From Escherichia coli (GTDB lineage: Bacteria > Pseudomonadota > Gammaproteobacteria > Enterobacterales > Enterobacteriaceae), in NCBI RefSeq assembly GCF_003334305.1, contig NZ_QOWS01000003.1: DNA of 64,000 nt; one strand, given 5' to 3'. Under the pieces are notes generated by a model. It did not search any database. It saw nothing but the letters and a program-made list of their open reading frames with translations, and was not told the origin of the DNA. Within the stretch, counting starts at the first letter, position 1; the number at the start of each line of letters is the position of its first letter. Below, in pieces: positions 769 through 11,208 of this stretch. A program made the translations under genes and the position numbers.

Positions 769-820
769 TTTGATAATACGATTGGGTAGGGAGTAACCAG
801 TATAAAGAGTTCGAATGGAT

Positions 821-847
821 AAAAAAACAGCCTCCGAAAGGAGGCTG
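821..847 (-). terminator. intrinsic terminator downstream of fdhF
   Basis: perfect inverted repeat CAGCCTCC-GAAA-GGAGGCTG (828-847) followed on the minus strand by a 7-T run; about 15 nt past the fdhF stop. Confidence 0.65.
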
Positions 848-861
848 TAGAAAGGACTGTA

Positions 862-3009
862 TTACGCCAGTGCCGCTTCGCGCAGGCGAGTTTTCAACTT
901 GTTGTACTCGTCAATCACGTACTGCTCGGCGGCGCGCTGATCGGCGATCGGCTCGACGCGCACGGCGCAGTATTTGTATTCCGGCGTTTTCGTAATCGGG
1001 CTTAAGTTTTCGGTAACCAGCTCGTTACAGGCACCAATCCACCACTGGTAGGTCATGTAAATCGCCCCTTTGTTCGGACGATCGCTGACCTGCGCACGGG
1101 TGATAATTTTGCCTTTACGCGAGTGCACCCAAACCAATGCCTCATCTTCAATACCCAGACGTTTGGCGTCTTCGGTATTGATTTGTGCGTAGCCAGGTTC
1201 ATCAGCCAGCGCCGCCAGTGCCGCACAGTTACCGGTCATCGAACGGCAAGAGTAGTGACCAACTTCACGCACCGTTGACAGTACCATCGGGTACTCGTCG
1301 GTGAGTTTGTCGATTGGCGCTACCCAGTCGCAGGTGAAGAACTGTGCCAGACCGTTCGGGGTATCAAACTTCTCTTTAAACAGATAAGAAGTCCCCTGAT
1401 CGGCATCTGAAGTATCGCGGCAAGGCCACTGAATGAAGCCCAGTTCGCCCATTTTCTCGTAAGTCGCACCGTAGAAATCCGGGCACAGATGACGCAACTC
1501 ATCCCAGATCTCCTGGGTGTTGTTGTAGTGCATCGGATAACCCATACGGGTGGCGATTTCACTGATGATTTGCCAGTCCGTTTTCAGATCCCATTTCGGT
1601 TCAACTGCTTTGAAGAAACGCTGGAAGCCACGGTCAGCCGCAGTAAACACGCCTTCATGCTCGCCCCACGACGTTGACGGCAAAATGACATCCGCCGCCG
1701 ACGCGGTTTTGGTCATAAAGATGTCCTGAACGATAACCAGTTCCAGATCTTCAAAGGCTTTACGTACTGCCGACAGCTCCGCGTCAGTTTGCAGCGGATC
1801 TTCGCCCATAATGTACGCGGCACGCACTTCGCCATGCGCTGCGCGGTGCGGCAGCTCGCTGATGCGATAACCGGTATGAGCAGGCAGGCTTTCCACGCCC
1901 CAGGCTTTGGCGAATTTCTCGCGGTTAGCCGGATCTTTCACGTACTGGTATCCCGGATACGTATCCGGCAGCGCGCCCATATCGCAGGCACCCTGCACGT
2001 TGTTCTGACCACGAACCGGGTTTACACCCGCATGCGGCTTACCGAGGTTACCGGTCAGCATCGCGAGGCTGGTCAGAGAACGCACGGTTTCCACGCCCTG
2101 GTAGAACTGGGTTACACCCATGCCCCACAGGATGGCGGCGCTTTTCGCCTGGGCATACATCCGTGCCGCCTGACGAATCTCACTGGCGCTGACGCCGGTG
2201 ATATCTTCAACCGACTCCGGCGTGTAGCCTTCAACGATTTTACGATACTCTTCAAAGCCTTCTGTACGGGAAGCGACGAACGCTTTGTCGTACAGATTTT
2301 CTTCAATAATGACATGGCCCATCGCATTCAACAGCGCGATGTTCGAGCCGTTTTTCAGTGCAATGTGCATGTCAGCAATGCGCGCGGTTTCAATTTTGCG
2401 CGGATCGCAGACGATAATTTTCGCCCCGTTACGTTTAGCGTTAATTACGTGATTCGCCACGATTGGGTGGGAATCCGCCGGGTTGTACCCGAAAACGAAC
2501 ACTAAATCGGTATTATCAATTTCGTTAATAGCATTGCTCATTGCGCCATTACCGACCGATTGGTGCAGACCTGCAACCGATGGGCCGTGTCAGACACGAG
2601 CGCAGCAGTCAACGTTATTGGTACCAATAACGGCGCGCGCAAATTTTTGCATTACATAGTTGGTTTCGTTACCCGTACCACGCGAGGAGCCGGTCGTCTG
2701 GATGGCATCCGGACCGTACTTCTCTTTGATGGCGCTCAGGCGCTCGGCAACGTAATTCAGTGCCTCATCCCAGGAAACAGGTTCGAGTTTGCCGCCACGC
2801 TGGCGACGGATCATGGGGGTTTTCAGGCGCGGGGTCAGGATCTGGGTATCGTTAATGAAATCCCAGCCATAATAACCCTTCAGACACAGGGTACCCTGGT
2901 TGGTTTTCCCCTGCGCTGCCTCCGCCCGGACGATTTTGCCGTTATCGACGACCAGGTTGATTTTGCAACCTGATGCGCAATAGGGGCAAACCGTGACGAC
3001 TTTTTTCAT
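862..3009 (-). CDS. fdhF: formate dehydrogenase H (715 aa), selenocysteine-containing; in-frame TGA at 2590-2592 decoded as Sec
   Basis: ORF-track segments 2590-3009 and 862-2541 are in the same frame and separated only by one TGA; N-terminal CPYCASGCK Fe-S motif; SECIS hairpin directly 3-prime of the TGA. Confidence 0.95.
2548..2589 (-). other. SECIS selenocysteine-insertion stem-loop inside fdhF
   Basis: mRNA reads UGA-CACGGCCCAUCGGUUGCAGGUCUGCACCAAUCGGUCGGUAAUGGCG, the classical fdhF SECIS. Confidence 0.88.
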
Positions 3010-3060
3010 CGGTCTCGCTCCAGTTAATCAAATCACGCATACGCGCTCTCGACTACAGTA

Positions 3061-3076
3061 TGCATCTTTTATGCCA
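3061..3076 (-). promoter_or_regulatory. sigma54 (-24/-12) promoter of fdhF
   Basis: minus strand reads TGGCAT-AAAAG-ATGCA, matching TGGCAC-N5-TTGCA; about 55 nt upstream of the fdhF start codon. Confidence 0.7.
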
Positions 3077-3178
3077 CATTTTATTTGGGGTCATTCCCTG
3101 ATATTACGGGCACTATTTATTCAAAACTCTGACGAAAAACAGGCTGTCGTCAGTTTTGACGTGACGAAACGAAATACC

Positions 3179-3196
3179 GCGTGACAGCCATCACGC
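3179..3196 (-). terminator. candidate stem-loop after mdtP (weak U tract)
   Basis: inverted repeat GCGTGA-N6-TCACGC 10 nt downstream of the mdtP stop; also falls in the expected fdhF upstream activating region, so the role is tentative. Confidence 0.3.
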
Positions 3197-3206
3197 GGCA
3201 GACATT

Positions 3207-4673
3207 TTATTTTTTCTCGACGACGGGAGCCGCCTGATACCCGCCGCCCAGCGATTTCATCAACTGAATGCTTTGGATCACCCGGCGGCTGTCCAGCATC
3301 AGTAATGACATCTCTTCGGCAAGTACTGGCAACCGGGCTTCAGTGGCCTGTAAGCGGCTGGTTAAGCCGCGCTGATAGGCGGCCTCGGCAGCGCGCTGGG
3401 TGAAGCGCGTTGCTTCCACGCGTTCAGCCTGCATTTCTCGCTCGTCGTTGAGCGTTTGCAGACGCGTGCCGTTGACGGCAACGTCACGCACCGCGTTCAG
3501 TACTGACTGGTTGTAACGTTCAATCATCATGTTGCTGGCGGCGCGCGTGCCTTCGAGATTGGCATTCAACCGTCCACCGTCAAACAGCGGCAATTTCAGA
3601 CCCGGGATGAAGTTGAACTGGCGACTGGTTTTTTTGAATAAGGTATCCAGGTGGATGGCATCAAGGCCGAAAAACGCTTTGATATCAAAGCTCGGGTAGA
3701 ACAGCGCCCGCGCGGAATCCACCTGATCTAATGACGCCTGAACATACCAGCGCATGGCTTGCAGATCCGGGCGTCTGGCGAGCAACTCATAAGAGAGTGT
3801 CGCCGGAATGCCGGTCTGGACTCGTGGTAATGCCACCGGTTTGATCTCCGGCATATCGCTGGCCCCCGCGCCAATCAATGCACGCAGAGATTCTCGCGTT
3901 TCGGTGATTTGCCCTTTGACGGCAGCAATTTGTTTATCGACCGCCAGAATCTGTGCCCGCGCGCCGTGGAAAGGCACTTGTGCTTCCAGACCGTGCGCCA
4001 CTTTACTCTGGTGCGCTTTCACCGCGTAATCAATCACATCGCGAGTTTGTTCTAACAGATCGAGCATCTGATAGCTGGCCTGCATACTGTAATAAAGCTG
4101 CGCTACGCCCGTGGTCAGCGATAGCTCTACTGCTGCGGTTTCTGCCAGCGCGGCATTATGCGCGCCAATGGCGGCGGCAACCGCTGAGCGATGCACACCC
4201 CACAAATCAAGATCCAGTCCGGCAAACAAACCTACTGTGGCTTCCGTATAGTACGGCCCGTCCATACCCAGTGCGGGCGCATCCATCGCATAAGGGCTTA
4301 AAAAGCCGTTCGCCGAGACGCGTTGGCGGTTGAGCATCCCTAACGCTGCGACCTGTAATTGTGAACCGGCATCTAACAAATCGGCCTGGGACTGCGCTTT
4401 TTCTTCCCGCAGTTTCGCTTCGGCGAGGGTGTGTGAACCACTTAGCGTCCGTTGGATCAGCGCATCCAGCTGCGGGTCATTGAGTTGTTTCCACCACTGC
4501 GCCTGCGGCCAGCCGGAGCTGGCAAGATGAATATCGTCGGCCAGTTTGATTTGTTCCGGTTTGAGCTGTTGATGAGGTGCAGAATCCTTACGTACCAGGG
4601 CACAGCCGGAAATCAGCGTCGTGCTGCCGAGAATGCTGCACAACAGCAGACGTGAAAGTTGACGATTGATCAT
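3207..4673 (-). CDS. mdtP: outer-membrane efflux channel lipoprotein (TolC-like OMF) of MdtNOP system
   Basis: 488-aa ORF with lipoprotein-type N-terminus (LISGC lipobox); 4-bp overlap with upstream mdtO. Confidence 0.92.
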   Translation of the reverse strand: MINRQLSRLLLCSILGSTTLISGCALVRKDSAPHQQLKPEQIKLADDIHLASSGWPQAQWWKQLNDPQLDALIQRTLSGSHTLAEAKLREEKAQSQADLLDAGSQLQVAALGMLNRQRVSANGFLSPYAMDAPALGMDGPYYTEATVGLFAGLDLDLWGVHRSAVAAAIGAHNAALAETAAVELSLTTGVAQLYYSMQASYQMLDLLEQTRDVIDYAVKAHQSKVAHGLEAQVPFHGARAQILAVDKQIAAVKGQITETRESLRALIGAGASDMPEIKPVALPRVQTGIPATLSYELLARRPDLQAMRWYVQASLDQVDSARALFYPSFDIKAFFGLDAIHLDTLFKKTSRQFNFIPGLKLPLFDGGRLNANLEGTRAASNMMIERYNQSVLNAVRDVAVNGTRLQTLNDEREMQAERVEATRFTQRAAEAAYQRGLTSRLQATEARLPVLAEEMSLLMLDSRRVIQSIQLMKSLGGGYQAAPVVEKK

Positions 4674-8254: not shown

Positions 8255-10240
8255 TTAATTTGGGGTTACGATATTCACCCACAAATCGAAATTATCCAGA
8301 CAGGCGATAATTTCTTCCAGTTTCGCGCCATTGCCAATAATTTTGGCTTTCTTCGCTTTTACCAGATCCGCCATTTTGGCTTGCCCGGTCAGCACGGCGT
8401 GCAGATCTTCACGGCTGATGTAGAAAGAGGCGTCAGCTTGGGATTGCAGTGTTTTACGGTAGTTAAGCACGCTATCGTTCAGCGTCAGGTTGAGGTTATC
8501 GCCATTGCTCATATTGAAGTTCAGGCTGATATTTTTACCCGCGGCTTTCGCGCTATCGAGGCGAACGGACATAAAGTCGAACAGCATTTCGACCGACATC
8601 CCGCGAATGGTGTCCGGGGAACCGGTGGTGCCGTGGCTGAACTTATGCACCCCTTCGCGCAGCTCTTTCGCGCCGGTCAGGTAGAAACCGCGCCAGGTGG
8701 CGGACTCGGCCTGATAGCCCAGCTGTTCAAAGTTATTCGCTTGCAGATTCTTCGCGACCTGGTCACCCGGGTTGGCGGCAATCACCTGTTTCAGCAGTTC
8801 TGCCGACCAGCGGTAATCACCTTGCTTGTTCGCTTCTTGCGCCAGGTTGATGACACGGGCAGAACCGCCCAGCGCCTGCACGTAACGTTTACCCATCTCC
8901 ACCTGACCATACGGATGCAGGTTAGCCGGGTTACCGTCGTAATAGCCAAGATAGAAGTTATACACCGCGCGGGCGTTGTGGCTGACAGAACCGTAATAGC
9001 CACGGCTGGCCCAGTTATTGGCAAGTGCAGGCGGCAGTTTAATCATGTCGCCGATTTCATTCATGGTGTAGCCCTGGTTCGCCAGGTGCAGGGTCTGGTC
9101 GTGAATGTACTTGATAGTATCGCGATATTTACCAATATAATCATTGATATGCTTATTGCCCCAGACCGGCCAGGTGTGCGGCATAAACAGGACTTCCGCG
9201 TCGTTACCCCACATATCCAGCGTTTCGTTCAGATACTCGGTCCACTTGCTGGTGTCGCGGGTTTTCGCGCCGCGCAGAGTGTAGAAGTTGTGCAGGGTAT
9301 GCGTGGCGTTCTCGGCGGTACACAGGGCTTTCAGGGCCGGAATATAGAAGTGCATTTCGGCTGGCGCTTCGCTACCTGGGGTCATCAGGAAGTCAAACTC
9401 CAGGCCGTCGATAATCATCTTCTCACCGGTTTTGGTGATGGTTTTGTTCGGTGCGATGATGCTCGGGTAGCCCGATGCCAGCGTTACGCCAAGACCATTG
9501 CCGATGTTACCCTGAGGGTTATGCGCCAGCAGCAGGCCGTAGGAGTAAAGTGCACGGCGGCTCATAATATTACCCGCCAGTACGTTTTCGCTGATGGCTT
9601 CGTCCATAAAGCCAGCAGGGGCGATAACCTGCACTTTACCGGATTTCACATCAGCTTCAGAGATAATGCCTTTCACGCCGCCATAGTGGTCGGTATGGCT
9701 GTGGGTATAAATAACCGCAACAATCGGTTTTTGCGGGCGATTTTGGAAGTAAAGGTCAAGGGCGGCTTTTGCGCTCGGTGGCGTCACCAGCGGGTCGATG
9801 ACAATAATCCCGGTATCACCTTCGATAAAGGTGATGTTGGAGATATCCTGACCGCGAACCTGGTACATTCTGTCGGTGACTTTAAACAAGCCGGAAATAC
9901 CGTTTAACTGCGACTGACGCCACAGGCTAGGGTTAACGGTTTCGGGCGCGGGCGCATTGATATCAAATTTATAATCTTCCCCGCGATAATATGGTTTGCC
10001 ATTAGCATCGCGCAGAATACCTTCATCCAGCAGCGGAGCGATAAATCCACGCTGAGCGTCGTCAAAATCCTGACGATCGCTAAACGGTAATGATTTGGCG
10101 TAATTCTGATTAACCTGTTGGGTATATTGAGTGGCGGCTTTCGCTTCATCTGTTGCGTAAGCGGTATTTACCATCATGCCGCTGGCGGCAGTTAACGCAA
10201 TAACAATTCTGCTCAAACGGAATAACCGAGAGTTATTCAT
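8255..10240 (-). CDS. yjcS: alkyl/aryl sulfatase, metallo-beta-lactamase fold, secreted
   Basis: 661-aa ORF from the second ATG (GGAG 6 nt upstream); signal peptide; [10 protein letters not shown] metal-binding motif. Confidence 0.9.
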
Positions 10241-10492
10241 ATAAATCTCCATTTATCATTTATGTCGTAAATATGTAATCCATGCAAAATACGTCATTTA
10301 AAGCTGGGGTTATCATAATTGGGAATTTGCGACTTTAATAAGTGGAAGTGTGAGCGGAACGATCCATTTTATTAGGCATTTGTGCTGAAGGGGGAAAATT
10401 ACGCGAATTTATTATCTCTGTAAATAATATGAGGTGTTTTATATATTTATTATATATATTGTACTTCGGCAAATACTGAGCACAATTTATCA

Positions 10493-10810
10493 ATGCAACC
10501 GGTGTTTCTTTTTAAAAAACGTACCGGAGCAATGGGCGGTCATGTCGCTGGCACCGCAGGATTCTGCGTTGCTGTGCCAGCCTTTTATTCATGGTCAATG
10601 AGTGAGGTGATTGATAAAGACACCAGGTCGTCAGAGCGCACTGATTATCCGCATTATGCCAGTGAAGTTGCACTGGCTTTTGGTTCACGAGTGGTTGGCC
10701 TCGAACTGGCAAAAATGATTGTGGATGCGTGGCTGGGCGCACAGTACGAAGGCGGTCGTCATCAACAACGCGTGGAGGCGATTACGGCAATAGAGCAGCG
10801 GAGAAATTGA
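10493..10810 (+). pseudogene. rpiB: remnant of ribose-5-phosphate isomerase B (rpiB), N-terminally replaced and internally deleted
   Basis: residues from about 10604 onward read EVIDKDTRSSERTDYPHYASEVALA then FGSRVVGLELAKMIVDAWLGAQYEGGRHQQRVEAITAIEQRRN, which I recognise as the N-proximal and C-terminal parts of E. coli RpiB (about 149 aa) with the ICGTGVG catalytic segment missing; sits directly upstream of yjdP as rpiB does in K-12. Confidence 0.55.
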
Positions 10811-10878
10811 GATTCATCCACTACTTGCATGGATGAGTAATGACTAATGTGGATAGAGTTTCTTTTTGAGGTTGGCTA

Positions 10879-11208
10879 ATGAAACGCTTTCCGCTATTTC
10901 TTTTATTCACCCTGCTCACGCTGTCCACCGTTCCGGCCCAGGCTGATATTATCGACGATACTATTGGTAATATTCAGCAGGCGATTAATGACGCTTATAA
11001 CCCTGACCGTGGGCGAGACTATGAAGATTCGCGCGACGACGGCTGGCAGCGTGAAGTGAGCGACGATCGGCGCAGACAATATGACGACCGCCGCCGCCAG
11101 TTTGAAGATCGCCGCAGGCAGCTGGACGATCGCCAGCGCCAGCTTGATCAGGAGCGTCGGCAACTGGAGGATGAAGAGCGGAGAATGGAAGATGAGTATG
11201 GGCGATGA
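10879..11208 (+). CDS. yjdP: small secreted protein with acidic/RRQ-rich repeats
   Basis: 109-aa ORF with signal peptide MKRFPLFLLFTLLTLSTVPAQA and DDRRRQ repeat-rich C-terminus. Confidence 0.85.
   Translation: MKRFPLFLLFTLLTLSTVPAQADIIDDTIGNIQQAINDAYNPDRGRDYEDSRDDGWQREVSDDRRRQYDDRRRQFEDRRRQLDDRQRQLDQERRQLEDEERRMEDEYGR

Follow-up and report, generated by a model that had tools for sequence, protein, structure and literature searches.

Selenocysteine decoding of UGA140 in the fdhF gene of an Escherichia coli strain: reading frame, SECIS hairpin and sigma-54 promoter

The reading of UGA codon 140 of fdhF as selenocysteine (Sec) by means of a SECIS hairpin, SelB and tRNA-Sec has been textbook knowledge for decades and is the founding bacterial case of such decoding. 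The product of the gene, formate dehydrogenase H, is a molybdopterin selenoenzyme that serves formate hydrogenlyase as its catalytic subunit. The E. coli fdhF SECIS has been reviewed as an element of approximately 40 nucleotides, of which the 17-nucleotide upper stem-loop (nt 15-31), located 11 nt from the UGA, is the minimal SelB-binding element and U17, G23 and U24 are the bases critical for SelB (PMC8659212). Recoding has been studied both in vivo and in vitro with the same fdhF fragment as the one described here, comprising UGA140 and the SECIS that encodes amino acids 141-153 (PMC4513850).

Here, we report on the fdhF locus within a window of 64 kb (the whole stretch of DNA that was analysed) from an E. 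coli strain that is not K-12. We consider it nearly certain, with a probability of about 0.98, that the locus is E. coli fdhF encoding a formate dehydrogenase H in which UGA140 is decoded as Sec via a SECIS element and whose transcription is driven by sigma-54 and FhlA, and we found nothing of substance that speaks against this. Directly observed were the reading frame with its UGA, the identity of the product, the match to the SECIS family, the UGA-linked conservation and covariation of the hairpin, the promoter motif and, for the species, the sel genes. The feature is already known and is already annotated as a single gene in RefSeq, hence existing knowledge is confirmed and not extended. 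The value of the exercise is that of a quality check, in which a recoded stop is recognised where a naive ORF caller would give two genes or a pseudogene, and the comparative test described below offers a clean and reusable way to separate a real SECIS from a chance hairpin.

The closest described system is fdhF of E. coli K-12 (b4079), with which the locus shares the same protein (as represented by the K-12-derived PDB chains), the same SECIS, the same sigma-54 17-mer and the same neighbours, yjcO and mdtP, and no difference was found within the element. The wider gene order presumably departs from that of K-12, since in the window the end of an IS621 adjoins yjcO and the als operon is missing. 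Positions 1-73 of the window are this IS621 end, where other strains have a REP, and besides lacking the als operon the region has a truncated rpiB. Other observations made in the window were an overlap of STnc630 with pmrR and a match to naRNA4 that is REP-derived.

The fdhF coding sequence lies on the minus strand at 862..3009 and consists of 716 codons including the stop, with the ATG at 3009-3007 and the final TAA at 864-862. Single-frame translation from 3009 to 862, beginning with the N-terminus MKKVVTVCPYC, encounters a TGA at 2592-2590 as the sole internal stop. The distance from 3009 to 2592 is 417 nt, or 139 codons, and the TGA is therefore codon 140 with the frame unchanged across it; the coordinates given in the original prediction, which placed two ORF segments in one frame on either side of a single TGA, were exact. 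For protein comparisons, the internal stop was written as X. Over its entire length (residues 1-715), the product is 100% identical to the formate dehydrogenase H chains of PDB entries 1AA6, 1FDI, 1FDO, 2IV2 and 7Z0T, all of which carry a non-standard residue (X) at position 140, and the in-frame UGA at 2590..2592 (minus strand), which falls on the active-site residue, aligns with this X, which is Sec. The prediction of one 715-aa selenoprotein is borne out by this identity with the crystallised enzyme. The product also belongs to the NCBIfam equivalog TIGR01591 'formate dehydrogenase subunit alpha', for which its whole-protein score of 1089 bits exceeds the curated cut-off of 666.25.

A Shine-Dalgarno sequence, GGAG, can be read at 3018..3021 (minus strand), 8 nt ahead of the ATG, and alignment of orthologues shows that ACTGGAGC has been kept. 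Past the stop codon, an intrinsic terminator on the same strand at 827..848 consists of a GC-rich stem of 9 bp and a subsequent TTTTTTT, and the placement of this hairpin and T-run (848..827) indicates that the gene is monocistronic.

A mechanical ORF list cuts the gene exactly at this point, as had been foreseen, into a 139-aa ORF at 2590..3009 and a 559-aa ORF at 862..2541 that restarts at Met157. Taken at face value, such a list would make of fdhF a pseudogene or two genes that arose by a nonsense mutation, both ORFs being actually expressed, and a truncated 139-aa product does in fact arise as a by-product, the efficiency of recoding at UGA140 being only about 30-40% such that a sizeable share of the ribosomes terminates there (PMC4513850). 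Conservation argues strongly against this reading. Of 5426 complete E. coli genomes, 5420 have the 2.5-kb fdhF region at 95-100% identity, and an 81-nt stretch that includes the UGA and SECIS is unchanged in 5404 of 5421 E. coli records. In the nearest complete genome found, that of E. coli strain H15, identity is 99.989% over positions 74-64000 of the window, and in strain E2865 the fdhF region (window 800-3300) is 100% identical. Both halves of the gene are under full protein-level conservation across genera, and the equivalent of codon 140 among the homologues is either TGA (51) or Cys (28). A separate downstream gene would start at Met157 and would lack the 4Fe-4S N-terminal domain, whereas the protein whose structure was solved comprises all 715 aa; the strength of the SECIS match (E = 1.8e-17) also speaks against a pseudogene. 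RefSeq genomes carry fdhF as one 2148-nt CDS, with yjcO downstream and mdtP upstream. The reading as a pseudogene or as two genes, to which we attach hardly any probability, is ruled out by the conservation of the TGA, the Cys found in homologues and the crystal structures of the full-length selenoprotein.

The canonical fdhF SECIS that had been predicted directly 3' of the UGA is present in full. The Rfam model SECIS_2 (RF01988) matches the minus strand at 2597..2543 (feature 2543..2597; cmscan and minimum free energy structure) over model positions 1-55 of 55 and scores 87.1 bits, above the gathering score of 70, with the E-value given above, and the fdhF element agrees with the consensus at every conserved position. 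The 48 nt starting from the UGA fold into one hairpin, ..((.(((((.((.(((.(((....)))))).)).))))))), at -14.9 kcal/mol, and the hairpin proper comprises nt 3-42 from the U of the UGA (2590..2551). The 17-mer GGUUGCAGGUCUGCACC forms the upper stem-loop, nt 15-31 from the U of the UGA (2562..2578, minus strand), at a distance of 11 nt from the UGA as in the published definition. The apical loop consists of the four nucleotides GGUC (2571..2568), with G23 at 2570 and U24 at 2569, and one U is bulged in the 5' arm, either U17 or U18 (2576 or 2575). The original prediction had called the 17-mer itself the apical loop; both the hairpin and the 17-mer at 2578..2562 were found, but the wording has to be amended as the 17-mer is the whole upper stem-loop and only the GGUC is the loop.

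In folding energy, the SECIS does not stand out from its dinucleotide shuffles (z = -0.67), 49 of 200 of which are equally or more stable, hence the mere existence of a stable hairpin is a weak test. The absence of such a hairpin and a change of frame across the junction had been named beforehand as contrary evidence; a hairpin is present and the frame is continuous, although in view of the z value hairpin stability carries little weight as a criterion. A 28-nt sub-window of the element, furthermore, prefers an alternative pairing. Since the energy does not discriminate and this alternative fold exists, the covariance model and covariation were used instead, and it is the Rfam covariance-model match and the comparative data, not thermodynamics, that give the SECIS its above-chance support.

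The shuffling result also bears on a second explanation, in which the hairpin is a by-product of the encoded peptide (His-Gly-Pro-Ser-Val-Ala-Gly-Leu-His-Gln-Ser-Val-Gly) and of G+C content and is not a selected RNA signal, the UGA being read through independently of the SECIS. In addition to the unremarkable folding energy, this explanation can draw on the peptide SVAGL, which Sec and Cys forms of the protein alike have retained, so that conservation of the nucleotides is in part driven by the protein. The Cys forms, however, also provide the means of deciding the matter. A scan of one genome per species yielded 80 fdhF-type loci, in 79 of which the equivalent of codon 140 was readable; the codon aligned with UGA140 among these 79 homologous loci is TGA in 51 and TGC or TGT (Cys) in 28. 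Adding the window gives a comparative set of 80 sequences, of which 52 are Sec forms and 28 are Cys forms. At least 10 switches between Sec and Cys are required on a neighbour-joining tree of the proteins, hence the two classes are interleaved and do not form two clades.

Within this set, GGUC occupies nt 22-25 in 49 of 52 Sec forms as compared to 1 of 28 Cys forms, and G23-U24 is found in all 52 Sec forms as compared to 4 of the 28 Cys forms. When the peptide is held fixed as VAGL, 47 of 48 Sec forms have the GGUC and none of 21 Cys forms does, which indicates that the signal lies in the choice of codons and not in the protein. The structure behaves in the same manner. In 28 distant Sec sequences the loop is flanked by a stem of 6-7 bp, of whose cells 90.8% are paired, compared to 79.2% in shuffles (0 of 500 shuffles were as high), with a covariation score of 0.376 compared to 0.168 in shuffles. 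Two of the pairs join synonymous third positions and are never broken in these 28 sequences: pair 18:30 is GC in 19, CG in 5, AU in 3 and UA in 1, and pair 21:27 is CG in 24 and AU in 4. The same stem imposed on the 28 Cys sequences has 43.4% of its cells paired, at the level of shuffles (44.2%), and shows no covariation; the enterobacterial version of the structure fitted this Cys set no better.

The covariation argument is carried by the distant set because the close enterobacterial sequences are too similar to be informative; among the close enterobacterial Sec forms covariation is weak, with only one pair showing a double change. The Rfam model is likewise narrow. SECIS_2 matched 4 of the 10 Sec loci tested, all of them from close Enterobacterales, and none of the 10 Cys loci tested; as it gave no match to the distant Sec homologues among these loci, an alignment anchored on the codon and counts of base pairs were used. 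The stem is kept by selection, as seen from the compensatory changes, only in relatives that bear the UGA, and both the loop motif and the wobble covariation follow the UGA through the 10 or more switches between Sec and Cys. With constructs lacking the SECIS having also served as negative controls for recoding (PMC4513850), the chance that the hairpin merely reflects its peptide is very small, and this explanation is ruled out by the contrast between Sec and Cys forms at a fixed peptide and by the wobble covariation.

Remnants of a SECIS hairpin were noticed in some Cys paralogues of other organisms. In one of them (L041), the 22-nt stem-loop core differs from that of its Sec paralogue (L043) only by a change of the loop U24 to C, and another Cys form (L074) retains the GGUC loop. 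Such paralogues, with a near-intact hairpin or loop, may be recent Sec-to-Cys conversions and, if so, could be used to date Sec/Cys switches.

A sigma-54 promoter had been predicted at 3061-3076, and the motif TGGCATAAAAGATGCA, which reads TGGCAT-AAAAG-ATGCA, is located there on the same strand as fdhF (3076..3061), 67 nt ahead of the ATG. The criterion applied was a GG and a GC 10 bp apart within TGGCAC-N5-TTGCA; here the two lie at 3075-3074 and 3063-3062, respectively, and are correctly spaced. A search of the window for the sigma-54 consensus produced 22 matches where 28.8 are expected, which is the level of chance, and the promoter call therefore rests on position, conservation and published ChIP-seq and genomic SELEX (gSELEX) data and not on the motif alone. 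The 17-mer GTGGCATAAAAGATGCA that makes up the -24/-12 promoter (3061..3077, minus strand) is identical to the sigma-54 ChIP-seq site OS41 upstream of fdhF (b4079) in K-12, which was flagged as previously confirmed (PMC4591121), and an RpoN gSELEX peak has been reported in the spacer between fdhF and mdtP (PMC8743547). Of 18 orthologous upstream regions from other genera, 15 retain TGGCA-N7-[TG]GCA, and the predicted promoter is upheld.

Further upstream, repeats and conservation across enterobacterial genera point to a candidate FhlA upstream activating region at 3121..3170 (minus strand). It contains two copies of TTTCGTCA (3169..3162 and 3137..3130) that are 32 bp apart, a palindrome CGTCAAAACTGACG at 3161..3148 and an inverted repeat AGTTTTGA/TCAAAACT, and the alignment of upstream regions shows TTCGnCACGTCAnnnnTGACGA and TTTCGTCAGrGTTTTG as blocks that have been kept among enterobacterial genera. 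FhlA has been reported to bind upstream of fdhF (PMC11291172). From this pattern of repeats we infer that 3121-3170 is probably the FhlA upstream activating region, and the same applies to the exact sites within it.

A second sigma-54-like 16-mer, CGGCCCATCGGTTGCA, was noticed on the sense strand of the SECIS itself at 2587..2572, with a correctly spaced GG and GC and a perfect TTGCA, at a level expected by chance. Intragenic sigma-54 binding sites have been reported to be widespread in E. coli. That the 16-mer is one of them seems very improbable; if true, it would link recoding with transcription.

Decoding of UGA140 requires SelA, SelB, tRNA-Sec (selC) and SelD, and a check for selABCD in the genome had been proposed. 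None of selA, selB, selC and selD was found in the 64-kb window, where the sole tRNA is a tRNA-Phe, nor does the annotation of the near-identical strain H15 have a sel gene across these 64 kb. An integrase remnant was observed adjoining the tRNA-Phe. When the 5426 complete E. coli genomes were probed with K-12 genes, selAB and selD were detected in all of them and selC in 5425, and tRNA-Sec is present in strain E2865. At the level of the species, the machinery is present in essentially every complete E. coli genome.

The binding of SelB, the mechanism of delivery, the dependence on FhlA and the ligation of molybdenum belong to established knowledge from the literature, and from these the sequence of events at the locus can be proposed. 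Transcription of fdhF would start from the sigma-54 promoter and would require the formate-responsive activator FhlA bound upstream. As a ribosome arrives at UGA140, the mRNA just downstream would be folded as the SECIS hairpin, and the C-terminal domain of SelB would bind the upper stem-loop (nt 15-31) through G23/U24 of the GGUC loop and the bulged U. SelB would bring with it GTP and Sec-tRNA(Sec), the selC product that would have been charged with serine and turned to selenocysteine by SelA with selenophosphate supplied by SelD. The tethered complex, competing with RF2, would then hand Sec-tRNA(Sec) to the A site. Once Sec is inserted, translation would run on to yield the 715-aa protein, in which Sec140 would ligate the molybdenum, and those ribosomes that do not recode would terminate at UGA140.

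Beyond K-12, the locus can be compared with three groups of known systems. The first are the distant SECIS elements of the fdhF/fdhA type, which share with the window the same codon offset after the UGA and the invariant G23-U24, and whose stem, like that of the window, is built largely from Val/Ala/Leu/Ala codons. They differ in that the loop has five nucleotides, GGUCU, and the stem of 6-7 bp has no bulge, whereas the enterobacterial element has the 4-nt loop GGUC and a bulged U. The SECIS of the Moorella thermoacetica type, which was used for co-crystals with SelB, belongs with these distant hairpins. The second group are the Cys paralogues and homologues of fdhF, among them the second enterobacterial copy and fdhF(Cys) of the Treponema type, which are of the same family and have the active-site context CAR[VLI]-x-H; the paralogues listed are 53-66% identical. 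Compared to the window, they have TGC or TGT in place of the TGA, G23-U24 is lacking in 24 of 28, and no conserved stem is present (43% of cells paired). The third are the SECIS elements of eukaryotes and archaea, which perform the same job in that an RNA structure, together with an elongation factor dedicated to the task, redefines UGA as Sec. These elements sit in untranslated regions and use a kink-turn or another motif, with SBP2 being needed in eukaryotes, whereas the bacterial SECIS follows the UGA immediately, within the open reading frame, and SelB binds it directly.

The SECIS hairpin directly 3' of the fdhF UGA contains, on its sense strand, a sigma-54-like 16-mer, CGGCCCATCGGTTGCA (window 2572-2587, minus strand). 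At the stringency of this 16-mer, matches in the window are about as frequent as expected by chance (22 observed against 28.8 expected). The main text of a sigma-54 ChIP-seq study mentions fdhF a single time, for its promoter site (PMC4591121).

Among the fdhF homologues of other genomes, two paralogues, a Cys form (L041) and a Sec form (L043), are carried by one MAG, OH_PBB_71, and encode proteins that are 78% identical; in the region 1498-1545, their stem-loop cores have their sequence in common except for loop U24, which is C in the Cys copy. In the Cys form from Caloramator (L074, region 1498-1545), the GGUC loop is retained and the stem has decayed. The L041/L043 pair and L074 seem to preserve traces of Sec/Cys switches that happened recently.

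Upstream of fdhF, an 11-bp terminator-like hairpin with a T-rich tail after it (3175-3200, minus strand) lies directly 3' of the mdtP stop codon, and the conserved boxes upstream of fdhF adjoin it. The 197-bp spacer packs both the mdtP terminator and the presumed FhlA enhancer.

The small ORF pmrR (28578-28667), convergent with pmrB/basS and overlapping the 3' end of that gene, is itself overlapped by a match to the Rfam sRNA family STnc630 (28509-28674, plus strand, 178.5 bits); this 'sRNA' is probably the pmrR mRNA. An Rfam match to the REP-derived nucleoid-associated RNA naRNA4 (22765-22842, minus strand, 87.5 bits) is located in the yjdN-yjdM spacer and is a REP/BIME element.

In the yjcS-yjdP interval (10240-10880), the sole CDS encodes a 105-aa protein of the 'RpiB/LacA/LacB family' (10493-10810). 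We take the K-12 order at this interval to be the D-allose operon alsRBACEK together with a full-length rpiB; if this order is right, the strain is without the als operon and its rpiB is truncated. The tRNA-Phe gene pheU is found at 59014-59089 (minus strand), and beside it, in the near-identical strain H15, is a frameshifted and partial tyrosine-recombinase remnant (approximately 58656-58815). This remnant, in the region 58650-59089, is a scar left at a site where an island integrated.

The window opens, at positions 1-73, with the right end of an insertion sequence, IS621 of the IS110 family, situated within the gltP-yjcO spacer. A 90-nt query spanning the IS621 junction matched in 1679 of 5426 genomes, where the median number of matching sites was 8. 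REP sequences are known targets of IS621. Strain H15, which is 99.989% identical elsewhere, has an intact REP element at the gltP-yjcO site in place of the IS621 end. Strain A7 carries the same IS621 junction as the window, with a CDS annotated as 'IS110-like element IS621 family transposase' just upstream.
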